Origin: Candidatus Bathyarchaeota archaeon
GTDB lineage: Archaea; Thermoproteota; Bathyarchaeia; Bathyarchaeales; Bathycorpusculaceae
Reading direction: 5' to 3'
DNA length: 64,000 nt
Assembly: GCA_963717465.1 (NCBI GenBank)
Contig: OY970340.1
Coordinates: 2,048,001-2,112,000, forward strand
Shown here one piece after another: positions 5,959-57,983 of the stretch (position 1 is the stretch's first letter; every line of letters begins with the position of its first letter). The position numbers and the translations under genes were made by a program. The notes under the pieces were generated by a model. The model was not told the origin of the DNA. It searched no databases and worked only from the letters and a program-made list of their open reading frames with translations.

Positions 5959-6534
5959 TTAAATCGTGGTTTTTCTTTGTTTAAGATAGTCTATTTTTGC
6001 ATCTGGTGGAAGGAACAGTGATTCAATGTTTCTTAGCGAGAATGGTTTGAGAACGAGGGCTTCTTTGTCTGTGGTAATATTGAAATTTTGCATGCTCCAT
6101 GTGCGACTTTTCTGTTCGCCTCTTAGTCTTCTGAGGAATGACAAGTAGCTTTCATAGTTTTTGTGAACAGATATCATCATTATGTTTGCGTCCAAGCCTT
6201 GTCCTTCCATGCAGCAGAGTATTTCTGGTTGTTCACCCATCCATTTCCGAGCTTTTGATATTTGTTCCTGTGTTAGCGGCGCGGCAGGCGCACCGAATGA
6301 GAGTGCAATAATCTCTATGCCAAGCTTGTTGAAATTGGGTATCACTGTATACTCGTTTATGTAACCTTCTTGTTCTATCTCTTTCCTTCGTCTGGACGCT
6401 GAAGTGTTGGTTATTCCTAAATGTCTGGCAAGTTCTCTGTCGCTGCTTGCCCCTGCCTTTATTAGAGCCGCAAGAAACCTCAACTTTTCAAGAATTTTTT
6501 GGTTTTGACGGTTCTGTCTTGATCTTTCCGTCAC
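5959..6534 (-). CDS. Lrp/AsnC family transcriptional regulator
   Basis: HTH SDRELARHLGITNTSASRRR followed by EGYINEYTVIPNFNKLG; divergent from the Mo-enzyme gene. Confidence 0.85.
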   Translation of the reverse strand: MTERSRQNRQNQKILEKLRFLAALIKAGASSDRELARHLGITNTSASRRRKEIEQEGYINEYTVIPNFNKLGIEIIALSFGAPAAPLTQEQISKARKWMGEQPEILCCMEGQGLDANIMMISVHKNYESYLSFLRRLRGEQKSRTWSMQNFNITTDKEALVLKPFSLRNIESLFLPPDAKIDYLKQRKTTI

Positions 6535-6719: not shown

Positions 6720-9050
6720 ATGGGAGATAGAATGATGAGTGAACAAATTGTAGACCCTAAAAGTTTCGATGGACTTCACAGATGCATATGCGGTTTTTGC
6801 AGTACCGGATCTTGTCAATTGCTTGAAACAGTTCAAAACGGTAAAATCGTTAAGGTTGAACCTGACTGGGAAAGCCCATTTAACCCTGGGCCGTACTGTC
6901 AGAAGTGGAAGTACAGTCTAGAATACATTTACAACAAGGACAGGCCAATGTACCCAATGAAGCGCATTGGCAAGCGTGGCGAAGGCAAATGGCAAATAAT
7001 ATCCTGGGAGCAGGCGGTAAGCGAAATAGGCGCTAAGATGAAGGAAATCATTGCAAAGTATGGTGCTGAAACTACTTGTGGTTTCTGGGGTACAGGTCGA
7101 GCCGCAAACTTAGGTTTAGGGCTTGCTAGTTATTTTGTTTTGATTGGCAGTCCGAATTTTGGTTCGATTGCGGCTCAGACATGAGCTGGACCCACGAACC
7201 AGGCCCTAGGATTGGGTTATGGCGTGGGAATTACGTATGCAATGATTATCCCTGGCAAGACGAAAGGTATCTTTGTTGCTGGTACGAACCCGAGTGAGTC
7301 TTGGACTTATTCTTGGCCTGCTTTCGTTGCGGGATTGGAGGCTGGCACGAAAATGCTCTGTATTGATCCGCGATTCAGTGAGACTGCGAGGCTTTCTGAA
7401 AAATGGTTGGCGATTAGACCTGGGACTGATGCTGCATTGTTTATGGCAATGATAAACGTGCTCATTGAAGAGGACCTGTATGATCATGATTTTGTGGAGA
7501 AATGGACTTTTGGATTTGACAAGCTCAAGGAACGGGCTAAGCAGTATACGCCTGAGAAGGCTGCAGAGATAACTTGGATTCCAGCTGAGAAGATCAGGGA
7601 AGCAGCAAGGTTCATAGCGAAGAACAGTCCATGCACTTTCCCGTTTGCCTACGCGATTGAATCATCAGGCAGGAACTCTTTAAGCAACGTTCGCGCAAAA
7701 TACATGATGCCCGCGTTAACCGGCAACATCGATATTGAAGGCGGCGAATACCTACACGCAAAACCGAAATTTCTTGGCGGCACAATGGCAATGCACGATA
7801 TAGCTGCGTCAGCAGATGTTGATCAAATGATGAAGCAGGTTGGATTGGATAAGTATAGAGCGTTGAACTTTACGATTGCTCCCTTGATTAATCAGGCAGC
7901 TGATGCAAAAGGATACTGGACAGGTGGTGCTCACTCCTCTGGAACAAGAGGTCCAAACTTCCCGACCTTTACAGATACAATGGTATCAGAGAAGCCCTAT
8001 CCAATCAAAGCTATGATTTCCGGTGAAGTAGGTCCAATGCGGAATTATCCAAACATCAAGAAAGTCTATGAAGGTTTGAAGAAGCTTGAACTGTTCGTTT
8101 ACATTGAATGCGCTCAAATGACGCCTGAAGCAATGATCGCAGATTATGTTTTGCCTGGCACTAGTCAATTTGAGAGAAATTCCGGCTACGCGACTGTTTC
8201 ATGTCAAGGTGAAATTGAGTTTGAGATCGCTGGTGATCGTGCCGTTGCTAGCAAAATACCTGGACTATGGGATCTAAGAGATGATAGCATAATATACCGT
8301 GATCTCGCAGTTGCAACACTTGGAAACGAAAAAGTTGATAAAGTTTGGCCTTGGAAGACTTTAGAAGAGTTTCAGGACATTTTCTATGAGCCTGCTGGTT
8401 GGACGCGCAAACAGGTGATTGAGGAATGGAAGGGTGTTCCGCCGTATGAGCCGAAATTCAAGAAGTACGAGGAGATTGATCCTGAGACTGGACAGATTAG
8501 GGGCTTTGGTACTCCTGAGGGTAAAGTTGCTTTCTACTCTACGATTTTGGAGCAGCTTGATTATGATCCGTTGCCGTATTATCAGGAATGTGCTTGGACG
8601 CCAATCAGTGCACCTGACATCGCAAAAGACTTTCCGTTGATCATGTGTAGTGGTGCCAGATTCCAGGAAGCTCACCATGGCGAACTACGACATATTAGCT
8701 TGATGCGTCATTTGCGGCCTTTTCCACGTGTAAAAATGCATCCTTTGACAGCGCGTAATATGGGTATTGGTGATGGCGAGTGGGTTTACATTGAGACTCC
8801 TGTTGGCAGGTGCATGCAGCAAGTGCGGTACGATTTCGGCGTTAATCCGAAGGTTGTTTCGCCTGAGCATGGTTGGTGGCGTCCAGAATTGCCCGGTGAG
8901 GAGCCATTCTTGCATGGATGGACTGACTGGAACATTGACGTTACAATCCCGAACGATGCAGAACAACTTAGCCCAGAACTTGGAGCCTGGTGCTTCAAAG
9001 CGGCGCTCGCAAAAGTGTACTCAGCCAACATTGGACCAATGGGACCATAA
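6720..9050 (+). CDS. Molybdopterin (Mo/W-bisPGD) oxidoreductase, acetylene-hydratase-like, with in-frame UGA (candidate selenocysteine) at 7182-7184
   Basis: ORFs 6720-7184 and 7212-9050 are in the same frame, separated only by one TGA; N-terminal CxxCx4C..C 4Fe-4S motif; IDPR, RPGTDAAL, C-terminal molybdopterin-dinucleotide domain; TGA lies in GSPNFGSIAAQT* matching GSPN...C of acetylene hydratase. Confidence 0.88.
7191..7228 (+). promoter_or_regulatory. Candidate bacterial-type SECIS hairpin
   Basis: CCCACG/CGTGGG, CCA/TGG and GGCCC/GGGTT stems with a TAGGATT apical region, starting after a 6-nt spacer 3' of the UGA. Confidence 0.5.
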
Positions 9051-9169
9051 ATTACGAGAAAATAGATCTTTCCTCTTTTCTTTTTTTTTTAAATCTCACG
9101 GCTTTATCAAATATTCTGATTTGATTTAATCATCACATTTAAAAGGACATAATAAACAAAAAGGGGTTC

Positions 9170-9532
9170 ATGAAAGCTAAAATAGTGAAGGCTAACTCGT
9201 TAAAGGAAACATTAATACGTGAAAACTGTGGTGTAGCCGAGAATTATCGTTCAAGAACTGTTTCCATCGCTCAAGCTCGAGTAAAACCTGGTAAAACAAC
9301 AGTTGCTCATCATCTTAAGGATGTTGAAGAAATTTATTTAATCATACAAGGCACAGGCAAAGTTTTTGTTGGCGACCTAACGCCTACTGAAATTGGAGTC
9401 GGCGATGTTGTTGTTATTCCGCCAAATGTCTCCCAGAAAATAGCAAACGTTGGCAAAACTGACCTAATTTTCAGCTGCATCTGCACTCCCTGTTTCACAG
9501 CAGAATGCTACGTGGATGAAGAAAAGCAATAG
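9170..9532 (+). CDS. Cupin domain protein
   Basis: HHLKDVEEIYLIIQGTG and GDVVVIPP cupin motifs. Confidence 0.88.
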   Translation: MKAKIVKANSLKETLIRENCGVAENYRSRTVSIAQARVKPGKTTVAHHLKDVEEIYLIIQGTGKVFVGDLTPTEIGVGDVVVIPPNVSQKIANVGKTDLIFSCICTPCFTAECYVDEEKQ

Positions 9533-10067: not shown

Positions 10068-12019
10068 ATGCAGTTTAAGTTAACAGCGCCCTACACGGCT
10101 TCACCGGGGCAAGAGGAAGCCGTCAAAAAGCTTGTCACTAACTTGGCCCACAAAGATAAGCAGACGCTCTTGGGCATCACAGGCAGCGGCAAAACCTTTG
10201 TTATGGCGAATTTAATTAATAAACTGCAAAAGCCCACCTTGATCATAGCTCATAATAAGATTTTAGCCGCCCAATTGTATGGTGAACTCAAAGAGCTTTT
10301 TCCTGAAAACCGTGTTGAATATTTTATTTCTTTTTATGATTATTACCAGCCTGAATCCTACATGCCTACAACAGATACGTACATTGAGAAAGATTCAGAT
10401 GTAAATGAACAGATTGAGAAAATGCGAATGCATGCTGTTTCAAGCATTGTCAGCCGTAACGACACGATTATTGTGGCAAGCATCAGTTGCATTTACAGTC
10501 TTGGTAACCCGGAAGATTTCAAAAGCCTAGCAGTCGAGTTAACTGTTGATAAACAATTTACTCGACAAGAGTTAATTCATGCTTTAGTTGATATGCAGTA
10601 TGAGCGTAACGATATGGCACTTGAACCGGGCAGGTTTCGAGTCCGCGGAGACGTGATAGATGTTGTTCCCGCCTACGAGAATGACATTTTGCGCGTAGAG
10701 TTGAATGGAAATAGAATTTGCAAAATTAAAGAAGTTGATCATTTAACTGGAAACGTAAAAGTGACTCTCGACAGAACCACACTTTACCCAGCAAGGCAAT
10801 ATGTAGTCCCTGAGGAAAAGCATGCACTTGCGCTTGAGCATATACAGCAAGAGTTGGATCAGCGGTTGCTTGAGCTTCCGCCTTTTGAAGCGCACAGGCT
10901 TAAGCAGAGGACAAATTATGATTTAGAGATGATTACGGGAAATTGGTTTCTGTTCTGGAATGGAAAATTACAGCAGGCATTTCGATGGGCGAAAACCAGG
11001 TGAGCCGCCGTTTACTTTGATGGATTATTTCCCAAAAGATTACTTGTTGATTATTGATGAGAGTCATCAGACAATTCCGCAATCAAGAGCCATGTACAAC
11101 GGTGACTATGCAAGGAAAAAGAACCTTGTGGATTTCGGCTTTAGACTGCCAAGCGCTATCGATAACAGGCCTTTAAAGTTTGAAGAGTTTGAGAAGAAAA
11201 TGGGCAAAACCCTTTTTGTATCTGCAACGCCTGCTGAGTATGAGTTGGAAAAAAGTGGTCCCGCCGGTGGAATTGATTACCCGGCCAACTGGTTTGCTTG
11301 ATCCAGAGATTGAACTTCACCCGATTGAAGGTCAAATGAAGCATTTGATGCTTGAAGCTAAGAAGACTATTGAGCGTGGAGACCGCATTTTAGTTACTAC
11401 GCTAACTAAGAGGATGGCTGAGGATTTAGCGGATTACCTTGCTAAAGAAGGCTTTCGTGTAAGGTACATGCATTCGGAAATTGAAAGTTTAGACCGTATA
11501 GAACTTGTGCGTCAACTAAGAGTAGGCGAATTCGATATTTTAGTGGGAATAAACTTGCTGCGTGAAGGTCTGGACATTCCAGAAGTTGCATCCATCTTCA
11601 TCTTAGACGCAGATAAAGAAGGCTTCTTACGAGACGAGCGAAGTTTAATTCAAACTATCGGGCGGGCTGCAAGAAACGTTAATGGAAAAGTATTCCTTTA
11701 TGGTGACGTTAAAACTCAGTCGATTAAGCGTGCGATGGAAATAACAAATTACAGGCGTGCTTTCCAAATGCGGTACAATAAAGTGCACAATATAACGCCT
11801 AAGACAATCGTAAAAGGTGTTTCTCATAAGGAAGGAGTAATCAAGGGTGCGAAACATTTGCCGAAGTCAGATATTCAAAGGCAAATAATCGAGTTTGACG
11901 CGCAAATGAGAGAGGCTGCTGAGAGACTGGATTTTGAGAAGGCTATTGAATTAAGAGATACGATCGCCATGTTGACTAAGTCGTTGTCTCAGAATGCGAG
12001 AATTGAGCAGTTGACATAG
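10068..12019 (+). CDS. uvrB: Excinuclease ABC subunit B (two frameshifts, probably sequencing indels)
   Basis: [26 protein letters not shown] and C-terminal UVR domain across ORFs 10068-11003, 10960-11301, 11180-12019. Confidence 0.95.
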
Positions 12020-12097: not shown

Positions 12098-14996
12098 TTG
12101 AGCGTCAATCATAAGAGATAATATTACAATTAAGGGCGCTCGGGAACATAATTTAAAAAATATTGATGTTGAGTTGCCCAGAAACAAGTTAATAGTGATT
12201 ACTGGGCTTTCAGGCTCAGGAAAATCCACTCTTGCATTTGACACAATTTATGCGGAGGGACAAAGGAGATACGTTGAAAGCTTATCCGCTTATGCAAGGC
12301 AGTTTTTAGGTTTAATGGATAAGCCCGATGTTGACTCTATTGAAGGTTTATCTCCAGCTATTTCAATTGAACAAAAAAGCACAAGCAAAAATCCTCGTTC
12401 AACAGTGGGCACAGTCACAGAAATTTATGATTATTTGCGACTTCTCTACGCGCGAATTGGAGTCCATCATTGTCCAAAATGTGGCAGTTCAATTCACCCT
12501 CAAAGCCCGGAAAACATCACAAGCCTTGTAATGTCTGAGAAAGGTAAAACTATGATCTTTTTAGCGCCAGTAATCAGGGGCATGAAAGGAACGCACGAGC
12601 AGGTTTTCGACGATTTAAAAAAGCAAGGATACACAAAAATCAGAGTGGACCAGAAAATTTACGATTCCGACTCAATCAAGGATGAAGTGAAACTGGTCCG
12701 CTATGAAAAGCATTGGATAGAAGCAGTCATAGACACGGTTAAGAATTGATGATGAAGAACGTTCGCGAATTGCTGAGGCAGTAGAGCAAGCGCTTCAATT
12801 CGGCAAAGGAACAATGATTGTTATAGACGCCGAGAACACGGATGCAAACAAAAAAAGAGAGCTCGAACGATTCGAAGCTGAAACAATCTACAGTACCTTT
12901 GGTGCTTGTCCCAATCATCCAGAAATTGTTTTTGAAAGCTTAGAGCCGCGAATGTTCTCGTTTAACTCGCCTTTTGGTGCATGCCCAAGTTGTCACGGTC
13001 TTGGGGAAATAATGGAGATAGCTGAAGACCTTGTGATTCCTGATAAGTCAAAATCCATAATGGATGGTGCGTTAGAAGTCTATGGCAAAATGGAGTTAAG
13101 TTGGCGTGCACAGCAGCTTGCAATGGTGGGCAAAAAACATGATTTTGACGTTTTCACTCCAATCGCTGACTTTTCTGAGAAGCAACTGCATGTTCTATTG
13201 TACGGTGATGCAGAGCCAATAAATGGCAGTTGGTCTAATGGCGCTAACATGTGGATGCGCAATGGTTGGGAAGGCATTATGCCCCAAACTATGCGGCTTT
13301 ATCGCCAAACAGAATAGTGAATGGAGAAAAGAAGACATTGAGAAATTTATGATTTATAAACCCTGCAATGTGTGTCAGGGCAAAAGGCTTCAGCCAGTGG
13401 TTCTTGCCGTTCGAGTATTAGACAAAAGCATAATCGACGTGACTGACCTTTCAATTGACGAGGCAGTTAACTTTTTCCATAATTTACCAGAGAAACTAAG
13501 CGAGAAGGATATGGCGATTGCCAAACAGGTGCTTAAGGAAATTAATGAGCGATTAGGCTTCCTTAAAAATGTAGGGTTAGGCTATCTCTCGCTTTCCAGA
13601 GCCGCAAGAACGCTCTCAGGCGGAGAAGCTCAACGTATCCGTTTAGCTACACAAATCGGCAGCAACCTAATGGGCGTTCTCTACATTTTAGATGAGCCAA
13701 GCATTGGCTTGCATCAAAGAGATAATGCTAAATTAATCGCTACACTCCGCAAGTTACGTGATCTTGGGAACACTTTGATAGTGGTTGAGCACGACGAGGA
13801 AACTATTCGAAGTGCAGATTACATTGTGGATATGGGTCCAGGAGCTGGAATTCATGGAGGTCACGTTGTTGCTGAGGGAGCGCCATGGCAAATTGAGAAG
13901 AACAAGAAGAGCCTTACGGGGAAGTATCTTTGTGGCGAATTAAAAATTGAGGTTCCTTCACAGAGAAGAAAAATCCTTGATTACATAACGGTTTCTGGTG
14001 CTCAGGAAAATAACCTGAAGAATCTTACGGTTAAGCTTCCGTTAGGCGTTCTATGCGGTGTAACTGGTGTTTCAGGTTCAGGGAAGAGCACGCTTATGAA
14101 CCAGACAGTTATGCCTGCTTTAAGGCAAAAGTTTGGAGAACGCGTTGACAAAGTAGGAAGGCACAGTCAAATTGATATTCCTCGATTGGTAAGGAACGTT
14201 ATAGTTATTGACCAAGATCCCATTGGCAGGACTCCGAGGAGTAATCCTGCAACTTACACGAAACTTTTCGATGAAATCAGGCGCATTTTTGCCTCAACAA
14301 AAGAAGCAAAAGCACGTGGATACAAGGAAGGTCGATTCTCGTTTAACGTTAAAGGTGGCAGATGCGAAACATGCAGCGGCGATGGCGTTTTACGGATTGA
14401 AATGAACTTTCTCCCAGATGTTTACGTGCAATGCAGCGAATGCAAGGGTAAACGCTACAACAAGGAAACCCTTAGCATCCTCTACAAGGGCAAGAACATC
14501 GCTGAAGTGCTAGATATGACTGTGGAGGAGGCTGCAGTGTTCTTTGAGAATGTGCCCTTTATTTCAAGGAAACTTCAGACGTTGCTTGATGTTGGGTTAG
14601 GTTACATTAAGCTTGGGCAGAGTTCAACAACGCTTTCTGGAGGAGAAAGCCAGCGTATCAAGATCACTCGTGAACTTAGCAAGAACAAGTCGGGGCACGT
14701 AGTTTACATGTTGGATGAGCCTACAACGGGGCTTCATTTTGATGATACCAAGCGGCTTATTGCGGTTTTGAATCGGCTTGTAGAAAAAGGAAACACTGTT
14801 TACGTTATCGAGCACAATTTGGATGTGGTTAAGAGTTGCGATTACCTTCTTGATTTGGGACCTGAAGGTGGTCTGGCAGGAGGAGAAATTCTTGCCAGCT
14901 GGGACGCCTGAAGAAGTCGCTGAAAACTCGAACTCATACACAGGGAAATTCCTGAAAAAAATGCTGACTAAACAGGCAATGGCGATTCAACAGTGA
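12098..14996 (+). CDS. uvrA: Excinuclease ABC subunit A (several frameshifts, probably sequencing indels)
   Basis: [18 protein letters not shown], zinc fingers, LSGGEAQR, second ABC cassette [16 protein letters not shown]; final TGA overlaps the uvrC GTG. Confidence 0.95.
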
Positions 14997-16591
14997 TTCC
15001 AATTTCTGCTCCAACTGAATTCAAAAGCAGTCAGATTCCACTTAATCCTGGAGTATACTTGTTTAAAGATGAGTCGGGTGAAATCTTGTATGTTGGGAAA
15101 GCCAAGAGTCTACGGCAGCGAGTTAAAAGTTACTTTGCAAATTCTGATCAGCCAGCCAAAACGAGGCAGTTGGTTTCAAGAATTAGAAACATTGACTGGA
15201 TTGTCGTGAATAATGAAGTTGAAGCGTTGCTTTTGGAGAATAAACTTGTTAAGCAGCACTCGCCAAGATACAATGTTAACCTTAAAGATGCTAAGACATA
15301 CGCTTACATCGCTTTTACACGTGAAGAATACCCGAGAATTTTGACTTCACGCAAAGTATCACGCAAACTCGAATCTTTCGGACCCTACACCGACGGGTTC
15401 ACTAGGCAAGATTTACAACGGTTGGTTGTGCGAGTTTTTAAATTGCGGACTTGCAAGAAACTACCCAAACGTGCCTGCTTGAATTTTCACATCGGCCTCT
15501 GCACAGCACCCTGCATCCAAAACGTCACGGGCGAAAAGTACATTCGTCAGGTGGAGCAAGCGCGTTCTTTTCTGAATGGGAATTATCAGCAGACAATTGA
15601 ATTGCTTAAGGCGCAAATGGAGAAAGATTCTCAAACGCAAAAATATGAAGAGGCGCTTGATTTGCGAAATCAAATCTTTTCCATCCGCCTTTTAACCCAA
15701 CGCCAGGTAGTTGATAACGAGAGAAGGTTTGACCAAGACGTAATGGTCTTTAGACAATTCGGCGAGAAAGTGAACGTTGTGCAAATGGGTGTGCGGAAAG
15801 GGGTTTTGCTGGGGAAGAAAGAGTTTTCAGTTGATTTGCAGCCGCAGATTGAGCAGGAATTTCTTAAAGCGTTTTACGCAACGAACAGGATTCCAAGAGA
15901 GATACTGCTTAACAAGCCTTGTTGGCAAGATAATGATGAAAAGGTTGCTTTGGAAGAGTTTTTGTCATCGAAACGGTTGGCGCCTGTAACGTTGGTTGTT
16001 CCGAGGCGTGCAGATAAGCTTGCGCTGGTAAAGTTGGCAGAGAAAAATTTGGAGTCCACTATGAACGTTGATGGTGCATTGGTTGATTTACAAAATACGC
16101 TAAATCTTGCAGTGCTGCCTCGGTTAATTGAATGTTTTGATGTTTCAAACTTGGGTCAAGAGCACGTGGTTTCCGGCATGGTCAGCTTTAAAGACGCAAA
16201 ACCCAACAAGAATGGCTATCGCAAATTCAAAATTAAAACTTTCACGGGGCAGGATGATTTTGCAGCAGTCAACGAAGTGGTAACGCGAAGATACAAGCGC
16301 GTAATGGAAGAAAAAGCTGTATTGCCTGACTTGGTGGTTGTTGATGGAGGACCTGGACAAGTCAGCGCCGCAAAAACTGCTCTACAATCGTTGGGGCTTC
16401 AGCTGCCGCTGATTGGTTTAGCTAAGGAGCATGAGGAGATTTATTTGCCCGATGGATCCTCTGCTCTGAAATTTGATGAAAACAGTAAGATGATGCTTTT
16501 GTTGAGAAGGATCAGGGATACAGCGCATAACTTTTCAGTTGGTTACAACATTAAACGCAGAGAAATGAAAATGCGTGAAGATTTCGAGTGA
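14993..16591 (+). CDS. uvrC: Excinuclease ABC subunit C
   Basis: GIY-YIG (PGVYLF...YVGKAKSL), Cys cluster, RNase H-like IECFDVS, VDGGPGQ. Confidence 0.95.
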   Translation: MIPISAPTEFKSSQIPLNPGVYLFKDESGEILYVGKAKSLRQRVKSYFANSDQPAKTRQLVSRIRNIDWIVVNNEVEALLLENKLVKQHSPRYNVNLKDAKTYAYIAFTREEYPRILTSRKVSRKLESFGPYTDGFTRQDLQRLVVRVFKLRTCKKLPKRACLNFHIGLCTAPCIQNVTGEKYIRQVEQARSFLNGNYQQTIELLKAQMEKDSQTQKYEEALDLRNQIFSIRLLTQRQVVDNERRFDQDVMVFRQFGEKVNVVQMGVRKGVLLGKKEFSVDLQPQIEQEFLKAFYATNRIPREILLNKPCWQDNDEKVALEEFLSSKRLAPVTLVVPRRADKLALVKLAEKNLESTMNVDGALVDLQNTLNLAVLPRLIECFDVSNLGQEHVVSGMVSFKDAKPNKNGYRKFKIKTFTGQDDFAAVNEVVTRRYKRVMEEKAVLPDLVVVDGGPGQVSAAKTALQSLGLQLPLIGLAKEHEEIYLPDGSSALKFDENSKMMLLLRRIRDTAHNFSVGYNIKRREMKMREDFE

Positions 16592-39820: not shown

Positions 39821-41117
39821 TTCGTGCTGCCTCGGTTGCCATTGCTTCTTTTAAAAGTTTTATTGCACAATACTGCGAGCACATAGAGCATGTCCCGCCG
39901 TCCTTAGTGGGGACACGGTTATGGATTTCTTGAGCTTTTTCAGGGTCTAACGCGGTTTCAAACTGTTTTTTCCAGTCAAGGTTCGCCCTAGCTTTTGCCA
40001 TCTTTAAGTCTCGAGCAGAAGCTTTAGCACCAAGCTTTACAATATCTACGGAGTGAGCTGCTATTTTTGATGCTATTACGCCTTCCCTGACATCTTCTAA
40101 ATTCGGCAAAGCCAAATGTTCCGAAGGTGTCAGATAACATAAGAAGTCCACGCCGGCAAGCCCAGCTATTGCTCCTCCAATGGCTCCGACAATGTGATCA
40201 TATCCAGGTGCAATATCAGTAACAATTGGACCGAGCACGTAGAAAGGGGCGCCATCGCAAACTGATTTTTCAAGTTGAATGTTAGCGTTTATGTCGTTTA
40301 ACGGCAAATGGCCTGGTCCTTCAACTATGGTTTGCACGTTAGCACTTCTTGCTCTCTTCACGAGTTCTCCCAGGGTTAAAAGTTCGTGAATTTGAGCCCA
40401 ATCTGTTGAGTCGGCTATACATCCAGGTCTGAAGCCGTCTCCAAGGCTTAGCGTAAAGTCGTACTCTGCAGCCATTTCTAAAAGGTAATCAAAGTTAGCG
40501 TATAACGGGTTTTCTTTGCCATGGTGAAGAATCCAAGTAGCGAGGAAAGTTCCGCCGCGGCTTACAATACCCATTACCCGTTTATGTTTCGCAAGTTGTT
40601 TAACGATATCTTGAGTTACACCGCAGTGAACTGTCATGAAGTCCACGCCATCTTTCGCTTGTTCTCGTATAGTGTTGAAAAGGTCATCTTCTGTAATATT
40701 AAGGATCGAACCTTTTTTAACAGCAGCTTCAACGGCTGTTTCATAAATAGGAACTGTTCCGAGTGGGACGCTAACTGTTTTAATCAGCGCTTTTCGCATT
40801 TCATGAAGGTTACCGCCTGTGCTCAAGTCCATAATGGTGTCAGTGCCATATTTAGTCGCAATTTTTGCCTTTTCAATTTCCAATTGAAAGTCGCACATAT
40901 CCTGGCTTGTTCCGATGTTTGTGTTTATTTTTGTACTTAGTCCCTTGCCAATGCCAATAGGATGAATGTTCTGACGCTGTAAATTACGAGTTATAACAAC
41001 AGTTCCTTGAGCAACTTGATCGCGTATAATTTCAGGTGATACATCTTCATCAGCAGCAACGATACGCATCTCGTCAGTTATTTGTCCATTTTTTGCTGCC
41101 TTCATTTGAGTGCTCAT
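39810..41117 (-). CDS. thiC: Phosphomethylpyrimidine synthase
   Basis: TKINTNIGTS, MDLSTGG, VSRGG, EGPGH, CSMCSQYC. Confidence 0.97.
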   Translation of the reverse strand: MSTQMKAAKNGQITDEMRIVAADEDVSPEIIRDQVAQGTVVITRNLQRQNIHPIGIGKGLSTKINTNIGTSQDMCDFQLEIEKAKIATKYGTDTIMDLSTGGNLHEMRKALIKTVSVPLGTVPIYETAVEAAVKKGSILNITEDDLFNTIREQAKDGVDFMTVHCGVTQDIVKQLAKHKRVMGIVSRGGTFLATWILHHGKENPLYANFDYLLEMAAEYDFTLSLGDGFRPGCIADSTDWAQIHELLTLGELVKRARSANVQTIVEGPGHLPLNDINANIQLEKSVCDGAPFYVLGPIVTDIAPGYDHIVGAIGGAIAGLAGVDFLCYLTPSEHLALPNLEDVREGVIASKIAAHSVDIVKLGAKASARDLKMAKARANLDWKKQFETALDPEKAQEIHNRVPTKDGGTCSMCSQYCAIKLLKEAMATEAARNEK

Positions 41118-41247
41118 TTAGTTCAACTCCATTTCAATTATAAAGAGTAAACAAAGAACTGAAAGCACACTCAAAAGCGCGTGTATTTTGTGGATAACAA
41201 TTTCTGCGAATATTGCCTAGAATTGAATAATTTGGTTTGGTTCACAT

Positions 41248-41340
41248 TTTTCCCTCCGCCAGTATTACCTGGTTCAGGTTCGTTGGGTCGACAGCACATT
41301 AGCTGTCCTCTCAGCCGGGTTCTCCCAGCTCCCCATTTAA
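41248..41340 (-). ncRNA. TPP riboswitch
   Basis: Minus strand GGGGAGC...GGCTGAGA...GACCC..GAACCTGAACCAGGTAATACTGGCGGAGGGA matches the THI-box consensus, ~130 nt upstream of thiC. Confidence 0.93.
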
Positions 41341-41545
41341 CCTTGCAGATAGATGAGTCATTTAGTGATATTTTAATTTTCCTAATTTTTTTAACGTGTT
41401 TTCATCAAGAACAGTATATTTGTGGAAAAGAAAAAATGATTGAATTAGGAAGGCTATCCTGATGATTCCTTCTTGCAGCTTTTACTCTAAAAGTAAATAA
41501 ATAACTTATCCCTACTTTAGGGAAACCTGATGCATGGTGAATTAA

Positions 41546-56958: not shown

Positions 56959-56964
56959 ACATAA

Positions 56965-57039
56965 TGGACAAGGGGGGATTTGAACCCCCGACCTCTACAA
57001 TGCCAATGTAGCGTTCATACCAAACTGGACTACTTGCCC
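56965..57039 (-). tRNA. tRNA-Ala(GGC), intact, element-borne
   Basis: GGGCAAG/CTTGTCC acceptor with G3:U70, CTACA-TTGGCAT-TGTAG anticodon arm, GGGGG-TTCAAAT-CCCCC T arm. Confidence 0.93.
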
Positions 57040-57333
57040 ATATTTTTTAGTTCTACTCCGTATTACCCTTTAAAGGTTACTAAACAGAAAAGCAAAATAA
57101 AAAAAGGAAAAATAATTATTTATCAACCACCTAAAACACAAAGACAATTAATCAAGCAATAAAAAGCACGGAACAGGTGAACATGCGCTATCACACTTTT
57201 TGCCCACTAAATCACAGTCATATTTCAGGAAAACAGAAAACTAGATTATACACTTAAATGTAAAATACGGGTAAAATTAACAAATCATTCGACCGACCAC
57301 CCAACAATAGAGTTAGCCATTGGTCAATGAATC

Positions 57334-57684
57334 TCATCGATGTTCTATTAGACAGAGTCTGACTCCATTCGGGTCTTCGATAAAGGCACACCTTCCAACG
57401 AGTATGGGAATGGGTTCCATTGTGATCTTAGCACCTTTGGCTCTTAGCTCGTTCAAAGTGGCATTCAAATCCTCTACGTCCACTCCGATTGAATACAACC
57501 CTACTTGATAATGTGGGTCTTCTATAACCTCAATCATGGCATCTCCTTCCCCTTTCAGAAGGGTAATCGTCGATCCTGATCGGGGTTTGTATTGACTATC
57601 AACCGTAAACCCCATGACAGAGGTGTAGAATTTTACCGTTTCTTCCATGTTTTTTACTATCATGGTAGAATATTTAACTTTCAT
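57334..57684 (-). CDS. VOC/glyoxalase family protein
   Basis: [35 protein letters not shown]. Confidence 0.9.
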
Positions 57685-57905: not shown

Positions 57906-57983
57906 CGACAGGTTGATCAGTCTGGTACGATCGCCACGTTGGCATCGTGGAGGCCGCGGGTTCAAATTCCGCCCCGTCCACCA
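57906..57983 (+). pseudogene. 3' part of disrupted host tRNA-Ala(GGC) (attR)
   Basis: Complete D, anticodon (CCACG-TTGGCAT-CGTGG) and T arms plus ACCA, but the local 5' strand CGACAGG has two mismatches and lacks G3. Confidence 0.8.

Follow-up and report, generated by a model that had tools for sequence, protein, structure and literature searches.

An in-frame UGA at the metal-ligand position of an acetylene-hydratase-like enzyme family from a Bathyarchaeial genome: a probable selenocysteine codon followed by a candidate recoding hairpin

Does a TGA codon that falls on the metal-ligand position of a molybdenum or tungsten (Mo/W) enzyme end the gene, or does it encode the ligand? This question is raised by the locus 6720-9050 of a 64,000-nt stretch of a Bathyarchaeota archaeon genome (G000:C1:2048001-2112000, hereafter the window; positions refer to it unless G000:C1 is given). 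The source genome, G000, comprises one contig of 3.05 Mb. A single in-frame TGA (7182-7184) splits two same-frame open reading frames (ORFs), 6720-7184 (154 aa) and 7212-9050 (612 aa). The original prediction, made from the letters alone, had taken this arrangement as a candidate selenoprotein, and both the TGA and the frame are present as it described them. When the TGA is read through as selenocysteine (Sec, U), the locus gives a 776-aa protein, ...GSPNFGSIAAQT-U-AGPTNQ..., in which the residues across the Sec site are ...IAAQT-U-AGPTNQALGLGYGVGITYAMIIPGK. We are highly confident that UGA155 is a genuine Sec codon. The locus as a whole probably represents a real selenoprotein gene, belonging to a new Sec-using branch of a known superfamily and provided with an unusual candidate recoding signal.

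The 776-aa protein matched the Pfam families Molybdopterin, Molydop_binding and Molybdop_Fe4S4 at 102.3, 43.6 and 32.9 bits (cut-offs 24, 26.8 and 22.7). Since all three domains exceed their cut-offs, it is a member of the dimethyl sulfoxide (DMSO) reductase or MopB superfamily of bis-molybdopterin guanine dinucleotide (bis-MGD) enzymes. No NCBIfam equivalog was reached, the scores for PhsA (253 bits) and Fdh-alpha (234 bits) lying below the curated cut-offs of 694 and 666 bits. The best solved-structure match was the acetylene hydratase of Pelobacter acetylenicus (2e7z; E 1.6e-104, residues 22-767), and the second best was thiosulfate/polysulfide reductase (E 3.1e-56). U155 aligns with chain residue Cys138 of 2e7z, which we take to be the tungsten ligand Cys141 in acetylene hydratase numbering, with the Mo-ligand Cys of PhsA and with X (Sec140) of Escherichia coli formate dehydrogenase H (FdhH, 1aa6). 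These three columns bear out the earlier placing of the TGA at the metal-ligand position, and the protein ligand to the metal is predicted to be selenocysteine encoded by UGA155. In FdhH the aligned Sec stands in the motif U-x-G-P-[ST] and ligates the bis-MGD metal; the similarity to FdhH (about E 1e-38), however, is confined to the N-terminal half and falls below the NCBIfam Fdh-alpha cut-off, and FdhH belongs to a different clade.

An alignment of homologues had been proposed as a check, and it placed Cys at the U155 column in all 25 full-length homologues (36-43% identity), which by their protein names include Chloroflexi, Deltaproteobacteria, Syntrophales, Bathyarchaeia and Nitrososphaerota. 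G000 itself contains ten further copies (p2 to p11), 43-94% identical to the window copy, and the homologous codon is TGA in 11/11, with flanking residues that vary. Because it recurs eleven times among paralogues, the TGA is not a sequencing error. It had been argued that a stop at exactly this codon was unlikely to be random; the recurrence of the TGA in every paralogue, on an otherwise invariant Cys, strengthens that argument. The selenoprotein candidate is thus supported, with the amendment that it is one of eleven Sec-bearing paralogues and not a lone oddity. Eight of the eleven (the window copy, p2 to p7 and p11) look intact. The broken copies p9 and p10 were omitted from the codon analyses, and p8, p9 and p10 from the tree. 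A twelfth relative, p12, is 33% identical and has no stop. G000 has 14 MopB-domain matches, 11 of which are this acetylene-hydratase-like Sec family. At G000:C1:1076144-1076551 there is also a lone stretch of 137 aa from the C-terminus of a family member (76% identical), left over from another copy.

In a quick maximum-likelihood tree the eight included Sec copies formed one clade (SH-aLRT, the Shimodaira-Hasegawa-like approximate likelihood ratio test, 97), whose sister was a Cys-bearing metagenomic protein, P0012 (SH-aLRT 100); the placement of one row, L175, is meaningless, as that sequence carries 38 stops from a wrong strand or frame. Because the Sec copies form one clade with a Cys-form sister, the tree fits a single Cys-to-Sec change followed by expansion of the family.

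TGA is an ordinary stop elsewhere in G000, where it ends 253 of 1032 long ORFs. A contrasting case is an MttB-superfamily methyltransferase gene (G000:C1:1121393-1122982), whose in-frame TGA at codon 339 aligns to an Arg of an 84%-identical paralogue; this TGA reads as a nonsense mutation, not as Sec. Genome-wide scans for TGA-interrupted genes identified no other selenoprotein besides SelD, the scan being crude and noisy, so that others may exist. The 20 scan candidates tested turned out to be adjacent genes, one transposase and one MttB-type nonsense mutant. An IS240/IS6-type transposase gene (G000:C1:2012787-2013914) has an in-frame TGA within its DDE domain and is probably a pseudogene.

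Can this genome make and deliver Sec? The machinery, for which a search had likewise been recommended, was found. G000 encodes two tRNA-Sec genes with anticodon TCA (71.8 and 61.8 bits), each with a U:U mismatch in the acceptor stem, as has been reported for one wetland-sediment lineage of Bathyarchaeota (PMC8762117). A SepSecS match of 488.9 bits adjoins tRNA-Sec1, and SelD has a TGA of its own at the active-site Cys position (...VHG-U-SCK); SepSecS and the Sec-type SelD are both intact. Two ORFs, of 732 and 730 aa, join KTI12/PSTK to GTP_EFTU, domain 2 and aSelB_III. SelA was not found in G000, so the Sec route is archaeal. The original prediction had located archaeal Sec use mainly in Methanococcales, Methanopyrus and Asgard archaea; to these Bathyarchaeota must be added, since a PSTK-aSelB fusion has been described for 'diverse Bathyarchaeota and one Archaeoglobus' in the available parts of PMC8762117 and PMC9499178. 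Relatives of the fusion protein at about 70% identity bear Bathyarchaeota or Bathyarchaeia names, and a protein atlas search with the fusion protein returned CysNC-like look-alikes only. In the proposed route Sec-tRNA would be made by SerRS, PSTK and SepSecS in succession, with selenophosphate from the Sec-containing SelD, and would be delivered by the PSTK-aSelB fusion protein in the way described for Bathyarchaeota.

The second tRNA-Sec (TCA) directly adjoins the second PSTK-aSelB fusion (G000:C1:2827363-2829725), which is 54% identical to the first and whose 90% cluster contains G000 only. Its GTPase motifs are GHCKHGKT, EMPGN and SKID, against GHVDHGKT, DLPGH and NKID in the first fusion, and it may serve as a second factor for Sec delivery, either specialised or impaired in its GTPase. 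The fusion ORF and the tRNA-Sec U:U mismatch are the same as in the Bathyarchaeotal Sec system of Mukai et al. (PMC8762117; review PMC9499178). The available parts of these two papers cover the machinery, but neither the present selenoprotein family, nor the position of its selenocysteine insertion sequence (SECIS), nor a second divergent tRNA-Sec/fusion pair.

What would tell the ribosome that this UGA is not a stop? A hairpin begins 6 nt past it. Its basal stem, CCCACG (7191-7196) paired with CGUGGG (7223-7228), is followed by an internal loop, an apical stem of 4-5 bp (7202-7206 with 7214-7218) and a 7-nt loop, UAGGAUU (7207-7213). The exact arms occur genome-wide only at ten close copies, and in p11 the arms CCAACG/CGTTGG restore six pairs with the register shifted by one base. 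In the paralogue alignment 88.8% of the pair cells hold standard pairs, compared with 24-50% when the partners are slid. Five pairs have changed on both sides, which was reached in 2/500 shuffles, and the covariation score was 0.179 against 0.107 (1/500 shuffles). RNAalifold recovered the identical structure independently. Among 308 windows of 60 nt in the nine-copy codon alignment, those just past the UGA folded best, at -14.9 to -16.9 kcal/mol, with the next at -8.2 kcal/mol.

The codons themselves are also conserved here. Residues 158-170 rank first among 307 windows in synonymous-codon identity (0.862, mean 0.564, for codons of conserved residues). Of 168 four-fold-degenerate columns, only 16 do not vary among the eight close copies, and all five arm codons are among these 16; the chance of this is about 4e-6 under column independence, which does not hold. 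Three arm codons are rare in G000 (CCC 15%, ACG 15%, GTG 16%), and the arms keep them unchanged in 10/11 copies. A second region of high synonymous identity, residues 254-269, was dropped, being mostly two-fold codons with no outstanding consensus fold.

The flanks of the gene offered nothing comparable. The Sec-type paralogues have T-runs about 20-40 nt past the stop codon, and after p5 the next gene begins about 45 nt on. If the T-rich run behind the window copy (Table 1) is read as a terminator, little 3' untranslated region (3'UTR) is left. No SECIS-like stem-loop common to the 5' regions of the paralogues (24-36% GC) was seen. Judged from these flanks, there is neither room nor signal for a 3'UTR SECIS. 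At the 5' end an arrangement matching that of the window copy, ggagata..ATGATGAGTGAA, precedes p3, p9 and p10, which suggests that the true translation start is the ATGATG at 6732; Sec would then be residue 151 instead of 155.

SelD gives a second instance to consider. The SelD gene of G000 (G000:C1:951702 onward) and two Sec-type relatives (L279 and L287) have a conserved stem-loop of about 85 nt from about 12 nt past the UGA, in which the lower stems are conserved while the top varies, and the SelD stop lies only 60 nt from the next gene. The post-UGA fold averages -41.4 kcal/mol in four Sec-type genes and -34.3 kcal/mol (standard deviation 6.0) in 36 Cys-type genes, a difference of about one standard deviation. 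The SelD stem-loop is suggestive, as weak but independent support for an in-ORF signal.

In bacteria the in-ORF SECIS is a stem-loop directly downstream of the UGA. The present hairpin likewise lies directly past the UGA inside the coding sequence, and its apical loop starts 22 nt past the UGA and contains G residues. Unlike the bacterial case, the host is an archaeon with PSTK and SepSecS, its aSelB has no bacterial winged-helix domains, and there is no Rfam SECIS match. A conserved hairpin of this kind would mark the UGA as Sec rather than stop, and we lean, by a modest degree of belief, towards its being the recoding signal, at the bacterial-style position and not at the archaeal 3'UTR position. 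More tentatively, the UGA may be recoded by such a bacterial-style in-ORF hairpin read directly or indirectly by PSTK-aSelB, and the duplicated Sec apparatus (the second tRNA-Sec and the GTPase-altered second fusion), acquired or kept in one species, may mainly serve the eleven Sec enzymes.

Which enzyme does the gene encode? The protein shares with acetylene hydratase full-length similarity, the three domains, the N-terminal [4Fe-4S] motif and the metal-ligand position. Among the cluster ligands, the homologue alignment shows no variation at C27 and C60 and almost none at C24. In the motif CGFCS, Ser28 occupies the column of the Asp next to the second cluster cysteine of acetylene hydratase, presumably its catalytic Asp13, so that the Asp-to-Ser replacement noted by the original prediction is confirmed against 2e7z. 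The hydrophobic substrate ring of acetylene hydratase, which we take to be Ile14, Ile113, Ile142, Trp179, Trp293 and Trp472, corresponds in the 2e7z alignment to Thr29, Arg127, Ala156, Trp195, Phe309 and Cys495, so that one of six is kept. Because the Asp is Ser and one of six ring residues is kept, the enzyme, as judged from the alignment, is acetylene-hydratase-like and not acetylene hydratase proper. The best explanation as a whole is, with good probability, that the product is a cytoplasmic, apparently single-subunit bis-MGD Mo or W enzyme of the acetylene-hydratase / catechol-dehydroxylase clade.

Other readings of the UGA have to be set against the Sec codon. If the TGA were a nonsense mutation or an assembly error, the gene would be a pseudogene, and broken genes do exist here: in the window uvrB (10068-11003, 10960-11301, 11180-12019) and uvrA (12174-12749, 12814-13317, 13223-14911) are each split over three frames, three of the eleven enzyme copies (p8, p9 and p10) are disrupted by frameshifts or stops, which counts against our reading, and the MttB-type gene has TGA where its paralogue has Arg. 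Yet the TGA is kept, exactly on an invariant Cys, in all eleven copies, which differ at 6-57% of residues; the full Sec machinery is encoded in the genome; and the other breaks in the window are indels and not substitutions, as had been pointed out before. We give a pseudogene almost no credence. A real stop at the UGA would yield two polypeptides, an iron-sulfur (FeS) part of 154 aa and a second part of 612 aa whose translation restarts at TTG 7212, with the hairpin serving translational coupling. Gene callers do split the locus there, the public protein sets hold only split pieces of about 600 and 140 aa, and the start codon lies 9 codons past the TGA. Such a split, however, would remove the sole protein ligand to the metal, invariant in 25/25 homologues; the paralogues conserve the protein sequence (AGPT.QALG) of the nine codons from TGA to TTG; and a Sec machinery is present, all of which makes two polypeptides very improbable. 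The UGA might instead be decoded via tRNA-Sec as Cys or another residue, through conversion of O-phosphoseryl (Sep)-tRNA-Sec or through the second tRNA-Sec2/PSTK-aSelB pair. That pair, with its diverged fusion and altered GTPase motifs, is in keeping with such a role, and SepCysS can take Sep-tRNA-Sec (PMC8762117, available text). On the other hand, SepSecS and the Sec-type SelD are present and intact, the PSTK-aSelB fusion has been interpreted in the same source as preventing such cross-talk, and there is no evident gain in encoding Cys by UGA with special machinery where TGT or TGC would suffice. We regard this decoding as improbable, and retain Sec.

For the hairpin, the balance is closer. 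Sec may be inserted through an unrecognised distant element, or without any cis element, in which case the hairpin would have some other task, such as ribosome pausing or mRNA stability. Several observations speak for this and against a recoding role. The stability of the single sequence is ordinary (z = -1.40, with 17/200 shuffles folding as well); all the covariation comes from paralogues of one genome, which are related and may exchange sequence; the hairpin was first read off one of the paralogues used in the covariation test; and the basal stem, being the same in 10 copies, shows conservation and not compensation. Rfam gave no SECIS match, either for the window at the gathering threshold or for the surroundings of the gene at E <= 10, and the bacterial SelB winged-helix domain, which binds SECIS, was not found in the aSelB parts of the fusions. 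For archaea, the available text of PMC9499178 places SECIS elements in the 3'UTR, apart from a single case in a 5'UTR, and does not mention one inside an ORF. Against these stand the absence of other conserved structure (none found in the gene, none noticed in the AT-rich flanks) and the post-UGA stem-loop of SelD, stable only to about one standard deviation beyond the 36 Cys-type genes. The position and size of the hairpin also fit the bacterial in-ORF rule. A hairpin without a role in recoding is therefore unlikely, though clearly less so than the other readings of the UGA. A true acetylene hydratase with Sec in place of Cys would account for the best solved match by far (E 1.6e-104 against 3.1e-56). 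It would also suit the lack of a twin-arginine signal at the N-terminus (the translation judged by eye) and of an electron-transfer subunit gene next to the window copy, both of which we take to hold for acetylene hydratase; the missing partner gene also counts against the reading that we prefer. But Ser stands for the Asp beside the second FeS cysteine, five of six pocket residues differ, eleven diverged copies, most with a regulator of their own adjacent, suggest many substrates, and the surrounding genes belong to aromatic O-demethylation or encode flavin reductases. A hydratase proper is accordingly improbable, and an acetylene-hydratase-like enzyme with another substrate is preferred.

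The neighbourhood of the copies bears on that substrate. The window copy stands alone between a winged-helix regulator gene (5959-6534) and a cupin gene (9170-9532). Most paralogues are adjoined by a paralogous regulator, and 6/7 other aligned regulators are 34-43% identical to that of the window. Beside p3 and p8 lie an MttB-type methyltransferase and a corrinoid protein, beside p6 an MtmB-type methyltransferase and a ferredoxin, and beside p2, p5, p7 and p10 flavin reductases of the old yellow enzyme (OYE) type with a pyridine-nucleotide domain. A motif, TTTTGT..C.AAA, occurs about 100 nt upstream of the start in eight copies, p3 to p10 (e.g. G000:C1:616512, 1211072, 481137 and 133249); a stricter pattern, with a AACCTTAAATA box about 20-30 nt further on, matches p4, p7, p8 and p9, and the looser motif has 123 matches genome-wide. 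This looks like a regulon covering enzyme copies and neighbouring methyltransferase genes. The window copy and p2 have a common, different promoter region.

The characterised enzymes nearest acetylene hydratase are the catechol dehydroxylases (Dadh, Cldh and others) of Eggerthella and Gordonibacter, and the wider group reaches 'diverse bacteria and even Archaea', its working cut-off being >30% identity and E < 1e-34 (PMC7028382, available parts). Relatives of the present enzyme from Gordonibacter, Adlercreutzia and Eggerthellaceae show 30-33% identity, with E about 1e-93 to 1e-97 for the Gordonibacter and Adlercreutzia loci, and may not be the characterised enzymes; in the tree these sequences lie far from the Sec clade. 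Multiple paralogues per genome are common to both systems. Each catechol dehydroxylase is induced by its own substrate, and each copy in G000 appears, from the adjacent genes, to be under its own winged-helix regulator. The present enzyme would not hydrate acetylene; with its ten paralogues it would act on phenolic or lignin-derived aromatics, by dehydroxylation, hydroxyl transfer or hydration. Because of the neighbouring genes and the relationship to catechol dehydroxylases, we suggest, with considerable reserve, that the substrates of the family are hydroxylated aromatics set free by O-demethylation, a different one for each copy. It counts against this suggestion that it draws solely on gene neighbourhood and distant similarity.

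Table 1. Features of the enzyme locus in the window
Feature	Position	Strand	Basis
Divergent winged-helix (HTH_24) regulator, of a paralogous family accompanying enzyme copies	5959..6534	-	domain match; alignment
Sec-containing acetylene-hydratase-like bis-MGD (Mo/W) enzyme gene (probable)	6720..9050	+	776 codons read through; Pfam, 2e7z match
Ribosome binding site GGAGAT (6723-6728), then ATGATG at 6732, probable true start	6723..6737	+	5' ends of paralogues; inference
[4Fe-4S] ligands Cys24, Cys27, Cys32, Cys60 (CX2CX4C...C); Ser28 at 6801-6803	6789..6899	+	alignment to 2e7z
UGA read as Sec (U155), predicted Mo/W ligand	7182..7184	+	alignment to acetylene hydratase, PhsA, FdhH; homologues; paralogues
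Candidate in-ORF SECIS-like hairpin, 6 nt past UGA	7191..7228	+	conservation, covariation; function inferred
T-rich run about 20 nt past the stop codon, likely transcript terminator	9070..9090	+	sequence; T-runs after stop in paralogues; inference
Cupin-domain gene, 120 aa, downstream of enzyme	9170..9532	+	domain match

How widely is the family distributed? A search of 119 further genomes of the same genus (E <= 1e-60) did not detect it. In a phylum sample of 400 other genomes, 12 had relatives of at most 41% identity, which were Cys forms only, none with TGA, and searches of genomic and metagenomic contigs for related loci again gave relatives of at most 41% identity, none with TGA. SepSecS was present in 2/61 relatives searched (G000 and G051) and in 0/36 genomes of the genus. 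SelD occurs in 24/36 genus members, in 0/24 with TGA at the Sec position (a TGA in the SelD of G016, at the match end and next to a frameshift, was not counted); selenophosphate in those members presumably serves something other than Sec. In a class-wide sample of 401 genomes a Sec-type SelD was found in G678 and G690 (both of a sister genus), G593, G051 and G541, and none of these five has a Sec-type enzyme copy. C-terminal pieces 63-79% identical are present on NCBI contigs. With the 154-aa N-terminal part as query, four short proteins from elsewhere (P0283, P0311, P0314 and P0394), one of them on a 75-kb contig, end one residue before the Cys/Sec column. Their ends are a hint that Sec forms may exist elsewhere in the clade.

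Other features of the window touch the enzyme less directly. The splits in uvrB and uvrA, next to an intact uvrC (14993-16591), mean either that nucleotide-excision repair is truly decaying or that the assembly contains indel errors there. A thiamine pyrophosphate (TPP) riboswitch match (41234-41345, minus strand; 57.9 bits, gathering threshold 54.3) lies upstream of a gene ending at 41117. Two tRNA-Ala(GGC) genes in opposite orientation (56964-57040, minus; 57906-57983, plus) flank a short ORF (57334-57684); the second is lower in Rfam (43 bits), and the arrangement may have arisen by duplication where an element integrated.

Sec as a Mo/W ligand in formate dehydrogenases, the PSTK-aSelB Sec system of Bathyarchaeota and the acetylene-hydratase / catechol-dehydroxylase clade are already known. 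From acetylene hydratase itself the present family differs in its Sec ligand in place of Cys, in its Ser in place of Asp, in five of six ring positions and in its eleven paralogues, mostly with an adjacent regulator. A Sec-bearing member of the clade was not found in the literature searched, including the available parts of PMC9499178, PMC8762117, PMC5424206, PMC13188914 and PMC7028382, and the text of the last has 0 occurrences of selenocysteine. Descriptions of Bathyarchaeial selenoproteins were not found either, as far as the 2026 review PMC13188914 and other sources were available; their supplements may bear on this. The same partial literature yielded neither an archaeal in-ORF SECIS-like element nor a second divergent tRNA-Sec/fusion pair.

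The family adds an acetylene-hydratase / catechol-dehydroxylase-like clade, in Bathyarchaeia, to the few enzyme groups with Sec as Mo/W ligand. Since its genes are paired with those of O-demethylases and flavin reductases, one step in the anaerobic degradation of aromatics may depend on selenium. Because gene callers split all eleven Sec-type enzyme genes, the metabolic capacity of this lignin-associated group of archaea is underestimated. How SECIS, aSelB and ribosome are linked in archaea is described as an open question in the available text of PMC9499178. If the proposed signal is true, Sec insertion would have a third arrangement, in which archaeal machinery is combined with a signal inside the ORF, and G000 would be a natural setting in which to identify the archaeal SECIS reader that has long been sought. 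With eleven natural hairpin variants, carried by genes that have hardly any 3'UTR, the archaeal SECIS question can be put to a direct test.

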